A stretch of DNA of 8,425 nt from an archaeon (GTDB lineage: Archaea; Iainarchaeota; Iainarchaeia; Iainarchaeales; CSSED10-239): NCBI GenBank assembly GCA_035387745.1, contig DAOOON010000007.1:1-8425 (forward strand). The letters run 5' to 3'. Numbering within the stretch: position 1 is the stretch's first letter; each line of letters begins with the position of its first letter. Made by a program: the position numbers and the translations under genes. Below are positions 2,746 through 8,425 of the stretch, piece by piece. The notes beneath the pieces are model-generated. The model worked only from the letters and a program-made list of their open reading frames with translations. It had not been told where the DNA came from and did no database searches.

Positions 2746-2892
2746 TTATTTTTTTTCAGGAACAGAAAACAATTTTCTATCTTGAAATTCTGATTGTTTA
2801 CCATAGTTCCATGCGTCTACTCTTCTAACATATCCTACGACTCTAGAATATATTTCGCATTTCTGTCTTTTAGACTCTAATTCACTACTCAT
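2746..2892 (-). CDS. 48-aa glycyl-radical domain peptide (detached C-terminal module of NrdD)
   Basis: Hand translation of the minus strand from ATG 2890-2892 to TAA 2746-2748 gives MSSELESKRQKCEIYSRVVGYVRRVDAWNYGKQSEFQDRKLFSVPEKK. It contains the SR-V-x-G-Y ... W-N-x-G-K-x-x-E-F-x-x-R signature of the NrdD C-terminus (glycyl radical site in RVVGY). The ATG overlaps the nrdD TGA (ATGA), and GGAGG (2900-2904) lies 7 nt upstream. The ORF is below the ORF-track length cutoff. Confidence 0.7.
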   Translation of the reverse strand: MSSELESKRQKCEIYSRVVGYVRRVDAWNYGKQSEFQDRKLFSVPEKK

Positions 2893-4916
2893 TTTATTTC
2901 CTCCTTATATCCTATCTCTTCATCACAAATTGGACAAAACTCGTGTTCTCCAAAAATATATCCATGTTTTGGGCAAACTGAAAAAGTTGGTGTAAATGTA
3001 AAATATGGCAATTTGAATCTTGTTGTAATCTTTTGAATTAACAATTTTATTGCTTCTCTTGATGGTTTCTTTTCGCCAATAAAAATGTGGATCACAGTTC
3101 CTCCTGTGTATTTACATTGTAATTCATCTTGCAATTCTAAAACCTCAAAAATATCGCTAGAGTAATTTACAGGTAATTGAGAGGAGTTTGTATAATATGG
3201 TTGTGCGCCATTATTAATATAATTTTCTTCGTTTGCAACAATTATTGATGGGTATTTTTCTTTATCATAGCTTGCAAATCTATATGTTGTGCTTTCTCCT
3301 GGTGTTGCTTCTAGATTATAAAGATTTCCTGTTTCTTCTTGATATTTTAAAATTCTATCTCGCATAAAGTCCATTACTTTAATTGCAAATGCTTGCCCTT
3401 TTTCTGTATATATCCCTTCTCCTAAAAAATTAACAGCAGATTCATTCAAGCCAAGTAATCCAATTGTAGAAAAGTGATTTTTCCAAAAACTATCAAATCT
3501 ATCTTTTATAGCTTTAAGATTAAATTTAGAATAAGGATATAATCCGTCATCGGTATATTTTTCCACAATTTTCCTTTTTATATCAAGTGATTTTTTTGCA
3601 AGATCCATTAAATGTGCTAATTTTTCAAAATATTCTTCTTCTGATTTAGAGAGATAACCTAATTGTGCAAGATTGATAGTTACAACGCCTATTGAACCAG
3701 TCAAAGGATTAGAACCAAATAATCCGCCGCCTCTTTTTTGTAATTCTCTGTTATCAAGTCTTAATCTACAGCACATGCTTCTTGCGTCTTCTGGTTTCAT
3801 ATCAGAATTAACGAAATTTGCAAAGTATGGTGTGCCGTATTTTATTGTTAAGTCAATTATCTTATTTGCAAGTTCTGTTGACCAATCAAAGTCTTTTGTA
3901 ACATTAATTGTTGGTATTGGAAAAGAAAACATATTTCCTATCGCATCTCCTTCATACAACACATCAAGTAAAGCCATATTAAAAATATCCATTTCTTTTT
4001 GAAAATCTCCATATGTTTTATCTTGTGATTTTCCTCCAATAATAACAGCCTGATCTTTAAAGGTGGAGGGGACTGTTAAATCAAGAGTTATATTCGAAAA
4101 TGGAGTTTGAAAACCTGTTCTTGTTGGAACATTCATATTATAAATAAATTTTTCTAGAGATGCTCTTGTTTGAGCATAATCAAGATTGTCATATCTTATA
4201 AATGGTGCAAGAAGAGTATCAAAATTACTAAATGCCTGTGCACCAGCTGATTCTCCTTGAAGAGTATATATAAAATTAACAATTTGTCCTAATGCAGTAT
4301 CTAGATGTTTTGGCGGAGATGCCACAACTTTTCCTGGGGACCCTCTAAATCCTGTTTGTAATACTGATTGGAGGTCCCAGCCAACGCAATAGGACCCTAA
4401 AGTATTAAGATCATGAATATGAAGTTGCCTTTTTTCATGTGCTTCTTTAATTTCAGGAGGGTATATTTTTTTAATCCAATAGTCAGAAATTATTTTTGTG
4501 GATAAATAATTATTTAGCCCTTGAAGCGAGTAATCCATATTACTGTTTTCTTTAACTTGCCAATCTGAAATATTAATATAGCTTTCAACAGCATTTGTGC
4601 TATCTATTAATTTAGAAAGGTTTCTAAAATCGTCGTGTTGCCTTCTATAAATTACATAGGCTTTAACTAACTTTGTAAATCCTTCTTTTATTAATATGTC
4701 TTCTATAGTGTCTTGAATATCATTTATTTTTGGTAATGTTTTTTTATTAAAGTATTCTTCTGTTAGTTTTATATCTACTTTTTTTGTTAAATAATCTGCT
4801 AAGTCAATATCTGGATTATCGATTGCATCAAGAGCCTTAAGAATAGCTAATTTAATTTTATAAATATTATATGGTATCTTTTCTTCTTTTCTATTGATTA
4901 TTTGTTTGGCAGCCAT
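2889..4916 (-). CDS. nrdD: Anaerobic ribonucleoside-triphosphate reductase (class III RNR) large polypeptide, lacking the glycyl-radical tail
   Basis: 675-aa ORF. The N-terminus is ATP-cone-like (...DIQDTIEDILIKEGFTKLVKAYVIYRRQH). Class III landmarks are present: SMCCRLRLD (CCRL region), GGGLFGSNPLTGSIGVVTINL, and a C-terminal Zn-ribbon-like CPKHG...FCPIC. The ORF stops (…CPICDEEIGYKEEIK*) before any RVxGY glycyl-radical motif. GTGA lies 7 nt upstream of the ATG. Confidence 0.93.
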   Translation of the reverse strand: MAAKQIINRKEEKIPYNIYKIKLAILKALDAIDNPDIDLADYLTKKVDIKLTEEYFNKKTLPKINDIQDTIEDILIKEGFTKLVKAYVIYRRQHDDFRNLSKLIDSTNAVESYINISDWQVKENSNMDYSLQGLNNYLSTKIISDYWIKKIYPPEIKEAHEKRQLHIHDLNTLGSYCVGWDLQSVLQTGFRGSPGKVVASPPKHLDTALGQIVNFIYTLQGESAGAQAFSNFDTLLAPFIRYDNLDYAQTRASLEKFIYNMNVPTRTGFQTPFSNITLDLTVPSTFKDQAVIIGGKSQDKTYGDFQKEMDIFNMALLDVLYEGDAIGNMFSFPIPTINVTKDFDWSTELANKIIDLTIKYGTPYFANFVNSDMKPEDARSMCCRLRLDNRELQKRGGGLFGSNPLTGSIGVVTINLAQLGYLSKSEEEYFEKLAHLMDLAKKSLDIKRKIVEKYTDDGLYPYSKFNLKAIKDRFDSFWKNHFSTIGLLGLNESAVNFLGEGIYTEKGQAFAIKVMDFMRDRILKYQEETGNLYNLEATPGESTTYRFASYDKEKYPSIIVANEENYINNGAQPYYTNSSQLPVNYSSDIFEVLELQDELQCKYTGGTVIHIFIGEKKPSREAIKLLIQKITTRFKLPYFTFTPTFSVCPKHGYIFGEHEFCPICDEEIGYKEEIK
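2900..2904 (-). promoter_or_regulatory. Shine-Dalgarno GGAGG for the glycyl-radical mini-ORF, embedded in the 3' end of nrdD
   Basis: The minus strand reads aaGGAGGaaataaaATGagt. The core is the same as, and the spacing similar to, the GGAGG in front of the PRC-barrel gene (6164-6168). Confidence 0.55.
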
Positions 4917-6604: not shown

Positions 6605-6727
6605 AACTATCCCTTTAGTTCTTGTAATATTTATTTAATAGGAAAGCTTTATATTATGTATAATTAATCAATATACTTAAATGTAATTAATAAAAAAATA
6701 TTATTGTTATTACTATTATTTATTGTA

Positions 6728-6745
6728 ATATATATATATATATAT
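6728..6745. repeat. (AT)9 dinucleotide microsatellite
   Basis: The run atatatatatatatatat is read directly from the sequence. It lies in the 264-bp intergenic region upstream of the 6807 ORF. Confidence 0.95.
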
Positions 6746-6806
6746 TTATACATAACATAATTTATAATATAATAATACTTAATACAAGAAGTATGGGGGG
6801 GCTCAC

Positions 6807-7487
6807 ATGGATAAAATAATTAGTAATTATATAAAATATAAATTTATATTTAACAATGATATAAAACACTCTTCTTATTTATATCAAAAAATGTTTAGAT
6901 CTATATATGGTTATACTCAAAACGTTACTAAAAAAGATAAAAAAACATATTGGTATCATAGAGAAGGAGTTTTAGAGAATATTCCTTATATTAGGCCAGG
7001 AAAAAATAGCATCATAGTTCCAATTAATACAGAACACAAAATAATTAATTTTTTTAATACAGGAAAAAGTCCAACACATAATTTTAAAGAAAAAGGAGAA
7101 TGGTCTATAAATTATAATATTGATAAAATCGAAATTAATCAAGAAGATATAATTAAAACAATTGATGCATTTATTAATTCTCTAATTGTAATTTCAATAG
7201 ATGGTAAAAATACAAAAATATTTGATGAATTAAATAATATAATAATTGATAAAGAATATGCTTCAAAATTTAAGAAAGCAAATAAGGATAATCTAATATC
7301 AAAGATTAATAATATTTTAGAAATAGATTGGATATTTAAAACAAAAGAATCTTCTGAAAAAGTAAAATTATTAATTTCGTTATTTAATAAAGCAAAGGAA
7401 TCATTTAATTATTCATCAAGTAGTAATTATACAAATAAAGATAGTTTAACTTCTGAATCACTATTAAAAACTACTGATGAAAGCTAG
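6807..7487 (+). CDS. Hypothetical protein (orphan, 226 aa)
   Basis: Long ORF in a region that is otherwise stop-rich and about 20% GC. A G7 run (6795-6801) lies 5 nt upstream of the ATG as a possible SD. I recognise no family. The Lys/Asn/Ile-rich composition fits the local AT bias. Confidence 0.6.
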   Translation: MDKIISNYIKYKFIFNNDIKHSSYLYQKMFRSIYGYTQNVTKKDKKTYWYHREGVLENIPYIRPGKNSIIVPINTEHKIINFFNTGKSPTHNFKEKGEWSINYNIDKIEINQEDIIKTIDAFINSLIVISIDGKNTKIFDELNNIIIDKEYASKFKKANKDNLISKINNILEIDWIFKTKESSEKVKLLISLFNKAKESFNYSSSSNYTNKDSLTSESLLKTTDES

Positions 7488-7490
7488 TAA

Positions 7491-8027
7491 TTATTCTTTT
7501 TCTATTATTATAATATTCTTCTTCCAGGTTCTTTTTTTACCAGAATTATTAACTTTTATAAGGTTTATGTCTGTTAATGTTTTTATATAAGGATAAAGAC
7601 TTTTCTCGTTTTGGTATTCTACATTATATTGTAATTTTATTCTGTTCTTTAGATCTTCCATATCTATCCATTCATCATCTGGAAGACACGCAATAATATG
7701 TTCTGCTTGTGTATTTTCTCTAGCTTTAATTACATCCCAAATAGTGTTAATTTTTTTACTGCTAATTTTTGAAACATCATAGATTTTTGTGTGATTAATT
7801 TCCTTTTCATTATCTACTGTTTTTATATTTAAATTTTTTAATTCAAGTTGCTGAGTTTGCATGGAATTTGTATTTGATATTTTTTCATTTGATTGATTAT
7901 TTGAGTAATTACTGTAATTATTGTTATTACTTGCAAAAGTTTCTTGGTAATTACTATCTTTTTTATTATTTTTATTTTTTTTTAAAAGACCTAATTTAGT
8001 CAATAGTTTTTGAAATATATTGCCCAT
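7491..8027 (-). CDS. Hypothetical protein with Asn-rich N-terminus and possible C-terminal winged-helix DNA-binding domain
   Basis: 178-aa ORF convergent with 6807-7487, with only a 3-nt gap. The C-terminal ~80 aa (TIWDVIKARENTQAEHII..EWIDMEDLKNRI..EKSLYPYIKTLTDINLIKVNNSGKKRTWKK) show a helix-helix-helix-hairpin pattern reminiscent of a wHTH. This is a pattern judgement only. The N-terminal 55 aa are low complexity and are encoded by the GTAATTAC repeat, so the true start could be Met56 (ATG 7860-7862). Confidence 0.55.
   Translation of the reverse strand: MGNIFQKLLTKLGLLKKNKNNKKDSNYQETFASNNNNYSNYSNNQSNEKISNTNSMQTQQLELKNLNIKTVDNEKEINHTKIYDVSKISSKKINTIWDVIKARENTQAEHIIACLPDDEWIDMEDLKNRIKLQYNVEYQNEKSLYPYIKTLTDINLIKVNNSGKKRTWKKNIIIIEKE
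7915..7964. repeat. Intragenic copies of the same palindrome (triplet with 9-nt period plus one single copy)
   Basis: The copies are 7915-7922 GTAATTAC, 7924-7931 GTAATTAT, 7933-7940 GTTATTAC and 7957-7964 GTAATTAC. They lie within the codons for ...NNNNYSNYSNN... and ...DSNYQE... of the 7491-8027 ORF. Confidence 0.85.
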
Positions 8028-8038
8028 ATCATATTATA

Positions 8039-8117
8039 GTAATTACCGTAATTATTTTAAAGGGATTGGTAATTACAGTAATTATATAACCTCATTTTTG
8101 GTCATTACCGTAATTAC
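8039..8117. repeat. Three tandem-doublet copies of the 8-bp palindrome GTAATTAC (17-nt unit GTAATTAC-N-GTAATTAY), spaced 30 and 32 nt apart
   Basis: The three units are 8039-8055 GTAATTACCGTAATTAT, 8069-8085 GTAATTACAGTAATTAT and 8101-8117 GTCATTACCGTAATTAC. The first unit starts 12 nt upstream of the ATG of the 7491-8027 ORF and overlaps its TATA-like box. Confidence 0.9.
8053..8061 (-). promoter_or_regulatory. TATA-like box (tttaaaata on the minus strand) upstream of the 7491-8027 ORF, overlapped by the palindrome doublet
   Basis: The box is centred about 30 nt upstream of the ATG at 8027 and no SD is present. The GTAATTAC/GTAATTAT doublet at 8039-8055 lies between the box and the start codon, which is an operator-like position. 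Confidence 0.3.
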
Positions 8118-8204
8118 TATATTTAGCTTTTTGTTACTAAAAAATCAGCAAATTAGTTATGTATAATTATCTAAAAAAACACCTAAAAAATAAAGGTTTT
8201 TACT

Positions 8205-8240
8205 GTAATTACCAAAAAATCTAGCGTAATTACCAAAAAA
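8205..8240. repeat. Two perfect 15-nt direct repeats GTAATTACCAAAAAA, 21 nt apart
   Basis: The copies at 8205-8219 and 8226-8240 are identical. Each is the GTAATTAC palindrome followed by C plus an A6 tract. Confidence 0.9.
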
Positions 8241-8425
8241 ATAAGCAATTTTAGTGTTATTTATATAAAAATAAAGATTATTTTTAGTTATTTTTTAAAA
8301 AATAGGTTAATTTGGCCCATTATTCTAAATTAAGGCCATTAAATGTTTTTTTAAATAATATTTAGAGATTTATTTAAGTTGTTAATCTTGTCCAAGATTT
8401 AGTGATTTTTAGCTTAAAAATTAGA

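Follow-up and report, generated by a model that had tools for sequence, protein, structure and literature searches.

A conserved array of an 8-bp palindrome at the promoter of an unannotated archaeal gene for a predicted winged-helix protein

The DNA considered here is an 8,425-nt stretch (the window) of the archaeal contig DAOOON010000007.1, identical in sequence to part of JAKQJS010000088.1 from the archaeal metagenome-assembled genome GCA_029561035.1 and to contigs from several other samples. Near its right end lie gene X, which encodes a small protein with a predicted winged-helix domain, and a dense array of the 8-bp palindrome GTAATTAC that spreads from the spacer upstream of this gene into its coding sequence (CDS; Table 1). 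Read from left to right, the genes of the window encode a class II-like ribonucleotide reductase, nrdG, nrdD, xerA, a PRC-barrel protein, Y and X, and past the right end follow tRNA-Met, tfe-alpha, trm56, tRNA genes for Lys, Lys and Phe, mutS and mutL. The tRNA-Met(CAT) gene (8430-8506 in window coordinates, minus strand; L007:9621-9697) lies between tfe-alpha and the array, and these genes and X are all transcribed in one direction. Owing to this gene order, the array fills a 592-bp spacer downstream of the tRNA and upstream of X. The neighbourhood of tfe, array, X, Y and the PRC-barrel gene is deeply conserved, often with xerA nearby; X is always adjacent to tfe-alpha, the gene for a general transcription initiation factor, and close to the PRC-barrel gene.

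The palindrome array

Exact copies of GTAATTAC number seven in the window (7905, 7947, 8039, 8069, 8110, 8205 and 8226), accompanied by one-mismatch partner units at 7914, 7923, 8048, 8078 and 8101. Five exact and three near units are intergenic, and two exact and two near units fall within the part of gene X that encodes a disordered linker. All exact and near units of the array are confined to 7905-8233, the rest of the window being free of exact copies, as a first-pass annotation of this DNA had already stated. That annotation had counted seven exact and five near copies within about 320 bp; the counts stand, but four of its coordinates (7915, 7957, 7924 and 7933) are each 10 too high and are corrected here to 7905, 7947, 7914 and 7923, the remaining ones being right. 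In 200 dinucleotide-preserving shuffles the palindrome occurs 0.20 times on average and at most twice, with none of the 200 reaching seven, in agreement with the earlier estimate of well below one chance copy per window. Sites with up to one mismatch number 23 in the window against 5.6 expected, and 12 of the 23 lie within 7905-8233.

Much of the array is built from doublets. The 17-mer GTAATTAC-N-GTAATTAT occurs three times, at 7905 (N = T), 8039 (N = C) and 8069 (N = A), a fourth doublet, GTCATTACCGTAATTAC, begins at 8101, and the start-to-start spacing of the upstream doublets is 30 and 32 nt. Farther from the gene, GTAATTACCAAAAAA is found twice, at 8205 and 8226, 21 nt apart. This organisation had been described in the same terms before and reads correctly from the sequence.

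Table 1. Gene X, its predicted promoter and the sites of the array, in window coordinates; distances are relative to the ATG of X.
Feature	Position	Strand	Remarks
One-mismatch copy GTAATTAT over the stop codons of convergent genes Y and X	7487..7494	.	mismatch scan
Gene X, open reading frame of 178 aa, proposed array binder	7491..8027	-	open reading frame, homologues, AlphaFold, Foldseek
In-CDS triplet GTAATTAC-T-GTAATTAT-T-GTTATTAC, encodes N-N-N-Y-S-N-Y-S	7905..7930	.	about +98 to +123
In-CDS single copy, GTAATTACCAAGAA in gene orientation, encodes S-N-Y-Q-E	7947..7954	.	+73; motif count
Proximal doublet d1, GTAATTAC-C-GTAATTAT	8039..8055	.	-12 to -28, between TATA box and ATG
Predicted TATA box of gene X, TTTAAAAT	8054..8061	-	-34 to -27
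Doublet d2, GTAATTAC-A-GTAATTAT	8069..8085	.	-42 to -58, just upstream of B recognition element (BRE)/TATA region
Doublet d3, GTCATTAC-C-GTAATTAC	8101..8117	.	-74 to -90; inverted relative to d1 and d2
Second conserved element, TTATACATAA	8157..8166	-	about -139 to -130; near centre of inverted site arrangement
Distal site 2, GTAATTACCAAAAAA	8205..8219	.	-186; flank orientation opposite to d2 and d3
Distal site 1, GTAATTACCAAAAAA	8226..8240	.	-207; 21 nt from distal site 2

Conservation of the sites across related loci

In syntenic relatives whose X proteins are 93, 71 and 68% identical to that of the window, every unit is retained at the same distance from the ATG within a spacer that has otherwise diverged. 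Absence of the array from such relatives, which the first-pass annotation had named as grounds for discarding its proposal, is therefore not what is seen. An alignment of four syntenic relatives (A2; X 68-93% identical) has 62 of 64 motif columns invariant as against 122 of 337 other intergenic columns (Fisher p = 1e-21), with d1 invariant in all four. A metagenome scan yielded 44 further loci with X homologues at 38-89% identity, nearly all of which carry an exact GTAATTAC upstream, including those from genomes of 41-48% GC, a composition at which this word is far less likely to arise by chance. Of 36 X genes, 33 have an exact copy at -60 to -5 relative to the ATG, compared with 2 of 177 other genes of the same loci, and the association of motif and gene spans genomes of 23-48% GC. 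Related loci totalling 163.6 kb contain, once the main array is masked, 55 copies of GTAATTAC against 3.8 expected, sixteen control palindromes in these loci occur at their expected frequency, and the extra copies all lie near X. Samples of 18-20 kb around three of the loci (L001, L182 and L183) hold about one stray copy outside the X region, and the word is apparently not general throughout these genomes. When the literature was searched for the 8-mer, it yielded primers and unrelated sequences only. The cluster is real and deeply conserved. Chance, or a generic AT-rich word of the kind that the earlier annotation had considered as a possible explanation, is ruled out by the shuffles and by the control palindromes of equal composition.

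Toward the gene, the common layout consists of GTAATTACnGTAATGACCAAAA, about 15 nt, ATAATTACnGTAATTACCAATCn, TTTAWAAT overlapping ATAATTACgGTAATTAC, about 11 nt and the ATG. TTTAWAAT is kept in distant loci, in the order TTTAWAAT, doublet, about 11 nt, ATG, and in the most distant lineages the layout shrinks to TTTATAA-GTAATTAC (or GTAATGAC) about 24 nt before the ATG. Flanking bases extend the palindrome to YR-GTAATTAC-YR. Distances between successive exact copies peak at 21-22 nt (11 occurrences in 30 loci), 30-32, 41 and 50-51 nt; these are multiples of about 10.3, which places the strong sites on one face of the helix. The same data bear on the idea of an RNA-level element, in which the palindromes would pair within a long 5' leader and control translation or termination. 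Pairing over about 14 nt would be possible between doublets d2 and d3, and the conserved element at about -135 could mark a second promoter. Several observations speak against pairing: the sites are spaced by the helical repeat of DNA, the central base of each doublet changes freely without compensation in its would-be partner, and some sites are located upstream of the TATA box or, on either strand, within other genes. A search of Rfam gave tRNA only and no other RNA family, which disposes of a non-coding RNA gene as well, and control at the RNA level is hardly credible.

As its CCAA flank shows, the distal pair has an orientation inverted with respect to d2 and d3, and the second conserved element, TTATACATAA, has an invariant core in alignment A2, with TACATAA found at -125 to -181 in 20 of 34 loci examined. 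Inverted repeat sets flanking an AT-rich unwinding centre would also befit a replication origin with Orc1/Cdc6 or X as its initiator. Consistent with an origin are the inversion of the distal pair and d2/d3 around the central element, the length of the 592-bp spacer for a compact genome and the conservation of the locus across a deep clade. However, the gene tables of L001, L182, L183 and L184, which represent four lineages, list no AAA+/Cdc6 gene within 10 kb on each side, and the palindromes track the TATA box and ATG, following the gene even where there is no intergenic space. Adjacency to orc1/cdc6 is usual for archaeal origins, although not obligatory. The core of the origin recognition box (ORB), taken as TCCANNGGAAA, has four matches with up to one mismatch against 1.9 expected, none of them in 7900-8425; the first-pass statement that the array resembles no known origin-recognition box thus holds for this core. 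The GC-skew profile over 8 kb follows the gene strand. An origin at this position, proposed initially as one of several options, must be regarded as very improbable.

As to the element itself, TTATACATAA or its complement TTATGTATAA occurs in the window at 8157-8166 (about -135 of X), 6654-6666 and 6746-6755, and hence twice upstream of gene Y, in opposite orientations; the copy at 6654-6666 is part of a recurrence of the 13-mer TTATGTATAATTA. The element is unlike the local TATA consensus.

Plasmid or viral iterons and partition sites, also entertained at first, fare no better. The former are 17-22-bp direct repeats beside a rep gene on a mobile replicon, and centromeres of the ParABS, SegAB or type Ib/II kinds adjoin an NTPase gene. 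The gene tables list no Rep, ParA, SegA or ParM gene within 10 kb on each side, no relatives of X were found in IMG/VR, PLSDB or phage records, and the locus is syntenic chromosomal DNA on contigs of up to 1.19 Mb. Plasmid partition arrays (omega heptads, ParR-parC, ParG) do share with the X locus dense short repeats just upstream of the binder gene, and can act both as operator and as site of higher-order assembly. Their binders, however, are plasmid-borne ribbon-helix-helix proteins adjacent to a ParA or ParM NTPase gene, whereas the X locus is chromosomal, has no NTPase partner and encodes a predicted winged helix. A dif site consists of imperfect 11-bp inverted repeats around a 6-8-bp spacer with TAA-N(6-8)-TTA (PMC11840125). 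The best non-coding candidate in the window, at 8234, has 7 of 11 matches and is not conserved in the relatives of alignment A2; no convincing 11-6-11 repeat was found.

The copies at 7905-7954 encode S-N-Y and N-N-Y-S-N-Y within gene X. A wrong start codon, which would make them intergenic, is ruled out by the conserved MxNIFxK N-terminus; since this end of the protein is conserved, the annotated ATG at 8027 is correct and the copies are coding. In gene orientation the two units of the triplet at 7905-7921, those nearest the ATG, read ATAATTACAGTAATTAC from +106 to +122 with the exact unit starting at +115, and both this sequence and GTAATTACCAAGAA at +73 have the same forms as intergenic sites. 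The +115 copy is kept in relatives, and the +73 copy in L013, L015, L018, L019, L022 and L024. Eleven other genes of the contig encode tyrosine by TAT 156 times and by TAC 42 times (21% TAC), whereas the Tyr codons inside motif copies are TAC in all three cases. They are TAC in most close relatives too (Y27 and Y41 wherever the copies are kept; Y38 is lost in L015 and L019), with the remaining linker Tyr codons mostly TAT. In L015 and L019, Ser27 has become Gly (AGT to GGT) with the 8-mer untouched, and none of three SNY tripeptides elsewhere on the contig uses AGTAATTAC. The rarer TAC codons and a substitution that spares the 8-mer indicate that the in-gene copies are kept at the DNA level. 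The simplest reading of this codon pattern is that the DNA sites are under selection and that the disordered linker tolerates the residues they encode. An origin of the array as a codon pattern for SNY repeats, feared initially, can be dismissed, with five exact copies intergenic and the in-gene copies using the rarer codon and surviving the S-to-G change; the codon evidence suggests the reverse, namely that the DNA motif constrains the codons.

Satellite copies lie at several other positions. The one-mismatch copy over the stop codons of Y and X is exact in L013 (position 4534), and at this junction L042 carries six copies (3397-3536), mostly with a 22-nt period, and L033 (3400-3448) and L183 (10571-10619) carry three each, 20-21 nt apart. 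In the clade of L184, where X directly follows GT2 and Dus, the coding sequences of GT2 and Dus hold seven exact copies, and a further one precedes the start of X by 21 nt. The trm56 coding sequence, about 1.65 kb upstream of X and outside the window, contains a doublet, ATAATTACAGTAATTACCAA (L001:8353-8400), of the very form seen in the spacer; it encodes I-I-T-V-I-T-K and is followed at 31 nt by a third near-unit. L001, L013, L015, L019, L022 and L024 have this doublet, and L016 lacks it. In the ABCE1-tfe-alpha clade (L047:1625, L048:727, L050:1684, L054:1707, L046:931), GTAATTAC abuts a TATA-like TATATTTA in a conserved junction about 65 nt upstream of tfe-alpha. This position at a TATA-like box suggests that the tfe-alpha gene may also be under control of the motif in that clade.

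Protein X and a candidate autoregulatory operator

Doublet d1 lies between a TATA-like box and the start codon of X (ATG at 8025-8027), as the first-pass annotation had proposed, and in loci of the family the proximal doublet always stands just downstream of the TATA box. The sequence TTTAAAAT matches CTTTAWAA boxes on this contig that are located equally far upstream of xerA and at a greater distance before nrdD, and because it has this local form it is taken to be the TATA box of a promoter giving a leaderless or short-leader transcript. The distance from TATA box to ATG implies a leaderless or very short-leader mRNA and supplies the predicted transcription start. The arrangement is that of promoter-overlapping archaeal operators, with a site at the TATA box and predicted start that is conserved in orthologues.

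Protein X consists of an amphipathic helix (residues 3-16), a disordered linker rich in N, S, Y and Q (17-81) and a C-terminal winged helix (about 95-178). Homologues number 87 in a collection of 5.8 billion proteins, none of them with a Pfam domain, and every named one is labelled "hypothetical protein [archaeon]". An exhaustive profile search of 1.84 billion representatives gave just 37 clusters, with neither a tail of weak matches nor any reach into PadR. The family is small, sharply bounded, unannotated and archaeal, and its hosts are AT-rich, small-genome archaea, probably of the DPANN group. Alignments show a conserved N-terminal peptide, MxNIFxKLLxKLG (MGLFxKIKxLFxK in other clades), followed by the variable linker and by a highly conserved C-terminal domain of about 85 residues (alignments A1 and A3). 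A cationic, amphipathic 11-mer at the N-terminus is common to the whole family (hydrophobic moment 0.5-0.95), with F5 invariant in the 20 sequences of A1.

The AlphaFold model has a short N-terminal helix, disorder over 17-81 and a confident domain (predicted local distance difference test score, pLDDT, >90 over residues 100-170) of topology H-H-H-beta-hairpin (H107-114, H123-134, H145-153, E157-162, E165-170). The three helices and beta-hairpin wing are those of a winged helix, as in solved DNA-bound winged helix-turn-helix (wHTH) proteins, and Foldseek matches in the PDB are almost entirely wHTH DNA-binding domains of the Fur, PerR, Zur, PadR, BlaI/MecI and MarR types and RosR. Pfam matches to PadR, all below threshold, occur in 33 of 61 family members (best E-value 0.0093); the protein of the window itself has no Pfam match at E <= 0.01, and profile and sequence searches of the PDB with X found nothing. 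By its predicted structure, the C-terminal domain is a winged-helix fold with a remote likeness to PadR, which bears out the assignment of the neighbouring gene as a wHTH protein made at first pass. Near-invariant residues sit in the predicted recognition helix, EKSLYPYxKTL, and wing, GKKRTWKK, an invariance that appears to match that of the DNA motif.

Resemblance to PadR (PF03551; B. subtilis PadR-operator complex, PDB 5x11) extends to the predicted C-terminal fold, with 5x11 among the Foldseek matches, to a sequence S-L-Y-P-Y-I-K-T-L comparable to the L-Y-P-x-L-x-x-L motif of PadR, and to the autoregulation typical of PadR proteins. Membership is nevertheless rejected on score and on domain order. 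No member of the X family reaches the Pfam gathering score, and PadR proteins have an N-terminal wHTH domain followed by a C-terminal dimerisation helix, whereas the winged helix of X is C-terminal, its last strand being E165-170 of 178 residues with no helix after it in the AlphaFold model. PadR operators, moreover, are ATGT-N8-ACAT inverted repeats and not arrays of an 8-bp palindrome.

These observations make it probable that the array is a cooperative autoregulatory operator set for the adjacent protein X. Where the first-pass annotation had left autoregulatory operator, replication origin, iterons and partition site side by side, conservation and promoter geometry favour the operator; from the same evidence we infer that X is the binder, that it represses by binding and that transcription starts beneath d1. 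Units of X would bind the 8-bp palindrome within the extended site YR-GTAATTAC-YR, often paired with a weaker unit 9 bp away. With strong sites about 2, 3, 4 or 5 helical turns apart, bound proteins would lie on one face of the DNA and could cooperate. Doublet d1 would cover the expected transcription start and d2 would lie just upstream of the BRE/TATA region; given these positions at the core promoter, their occupancy should block recruitment of RNA polymerase, perhaps of TBP and TFB too, and so switch the X promoter off. The phased sites upstream and downstream may assist cooperative occupancy of d1 and d2. The copies at +73 and +115, at the X/Y junction and in trm56 would probably extend the same nucleoprotein complex, and outlying copies could serve as roadblocks or loop anchors and may tune the trm56-tfe operon.

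Close parallels in organisation are the archaeal repressors that overlap core promoters, for example MDR1 (Archaeoglobus), Phr (Pyrococcus), TrmB/TrmBL1 and SurR. In these systems, too, a small helix-turn-helix or winged-helix protein acts at a palindrome just downstream of the TATA box and over the start, polymerase recruitment is blocked, autoregulation is frequent and extra upstream sites bind cooperatively. X differs in that it belongs to none of these families by sequence, in its site, an 8-bp palindrome in 9-bp tandem doublets with about 12 units reaching into the coding sequence, and in lacking a ligand-binding or dimerisation domain, with an N-terminal amphipathic helix and a long disordered linker instead. 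Operators of the Fur type, with GATAAT hexamers, are likewise short contiguous AT-rich repeats on which the protein oligomerises and several wHTH units can sit side by side, and the top structural matches of X are the DNA-binding domains of Fur, PerR and Zur. Unlike those proteins, X lacks a metal-binding or dimerisation domain and has no sequence homology to them, and its site has a period of 9 rather than 6 bp and a different unit sequence.

Several points weigh against an autoregulatory operator read by X. The Foldseek E-values, although uniform, are weak (4e-3 to 3e-2), and X has no recognisable dimerisation domain, while PadR proteins dimerise through their C-terminal helix. It is also unusual for a wHTH dimer to target an 8-bp palindrome that repeats in tandem every 9 bp. 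The array, with about 12 units in 330 bp plus satellites, exceeds what a simple autoregulator requires, and the copies in the GT2 and Dus coding sequences of the L184 clade are distant from any obvious promoter. Because the neighbourhood is deeply conserved, the co-occurrence of gene and array cannot be counted independently of the locus, and the sites could be bound by some other factor. Lastly, the identical 17-mer lies upstream of bacterial MazE/AbrB-type antitoxin genes, and the motif alone consequently does not point to a wHTH protein.

This bacterial occurrence emerged from a doublet scan of GTDB genomes, in which mostly unrelated bacteria appear among the matches listed. In many of these, often GC-rich, GTAATTACnGTAATTAC is found downstream of a TTGACA box and before a gene for an 80-90-aa MazE/AbrB-type protein (L064, L065 at 1353-1369, L069, L077, L092, L094, L097, L149, L175 and L180). 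Judged by this placement, the bacterial 17-mer seems to be an operator belonging to a toxin-antitoxin family that is widespread and shares its DNA word with the archaeal array. The likeness between the two consists in an identical 17-bp doublet in the promoter, 30-40 nt upstream of the small gene of a regulator; the bacterial systems differ in the swapped-hairpin AbrB/MazE fold (PF04014) of that regulator, in their sigma-70 promoters, in having a single doublet and in that no such gene is found in the archaeal loci examined.

The archaeal array might then be read by an AbrB/MazE-fold or other regulator encoded elsewhere, with X as its conserved target gene. The presence of GTAATTACnGTAATTAC at MazE/AbrB-type promoters of many unrelated bacteria means that a non-wHTH fold may read the sequence, and conserved synteny confounds the co-occurrence of X and array. 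However, no AbrB/MazE-type gene occurs in any archaeal locus examined, and the parts of X predicted to contact DNA show the same invariance as the motif across one and the same phylogenetic range. The commonest arrangement in prokaryotes is also that a small wHTH protein encoded next to the sites controls its own gene. A binder other than X is, on balance, unlikely.

An array this large, its satellites and an amphipathic helix on a long flexible linker leave room for a larger, possibly tethered assembly. The N-terminal helix might anchor X to the membrane or a partner, with the array and satellites acting as a centromere-like or anchoring locus comparable to Noc-NBS, RacA-ram or ParB-parS and autoregulation as a by-product. 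Features in keeping with such a role are the conserved cationic amphipathic N-terminal helix with the long disordered linker behind it; a number of sites in excess of a promoter's needs, distributed over about 2 kb and including both X/Y junction arrays and coding-sequence copies maintained at the DNA level; the restriction of sites to one locus in the 18-20-kb samples; and a neighbourhood with a PRC-barrel gene and often xerA. Members of the PRC-barrel family have been implicated in archaeal cell division (bioRxiv 10.1101/2023.03.28.534520). Against it, there is no adjacent gene for ParA, SegA or another NTPase partner, membrane binding by the helix is a matter of resemblance, an oligomerisation or partner-binding peptide being equally possible, and the sole universal feature, the promoter-proximal site, is explained by a plain operator. 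A chromosome-organising locus is thus given a small chance, and there is a similarly slim one that X is a site-specific DNA tether of reduced-genome archaea rather than mainly a transcription factor, its cluster being an anchoring locus near the PRC-barrel and XerA genes.

Under the autoregulatory reading, what is new is an unannotated, putative regulator family with a newly defined candidate operator and some unusual anatomy. An unannotated protein family is here paired with a precisely defined, deeply conserved DNA site, a pairing testable with recombinant protein. To our knowledge, almost nothing is known of gene regulation in the uncultivated small-genome archaea that carry the X locus. 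Adjacency to tfe-alpha offers a possible link to basal transcription, and the in-gene copies kept by codon choice provide an example of a predicted DNA-binding site that constrains protein-coding sequence. Were X instead a tether, the locus would be a new kind of chromosome-anchoring system, with a site density high enough to shape the codons of the genes it overlaps (the X linker, trm56, GT2 and Dus).

Neighbouring genes and minor features

The xerA gene is called by the NCBIfam equivalog NF040815 (276 bits against a cut-off of 220). An integrated mobile element at tRNA-Met was rejected on several counts: the recombinase is an equivalog-level XerA, the synteny is deep and persists where the tRNA or xerA is missing, and protein X has no viral or plasmid relative. 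Shortly after tRNA-Met (L001, about 9625-9645), a 15-nt block, CACTAAATCTTGGACA, is invariant in four relatives amid diverged surroundings.

In nearly all loci examined, X has gene Y (6807-7487, plus strand, 226 aa) as its conserved convergent neighbour. Neither Pfam nor NCBIfam gives a match to Y, and its AlphaFold model, although confident (mean pLDDT 85, predicted template modelling score 0.76), matches no PDB fold significantly (best E-value 0.25), which makes Y an orphan fold that adds no functional context. The spacer upstream of Y contains a (TA)n microsatellite of about 19 nt at 6727-6745.

The anaerobic ribonucleotide reductase at the left of the window is seemingly split. An NrdD open reading frame of 675 aa (2889-4916, minus strand) overlaps by 4 nt a separate open reading frame of 48 aa (2746-2892, minus strand) that carries the glycyl-radical motif YSRVVGYVRRV, and the split is called alike in several samples.

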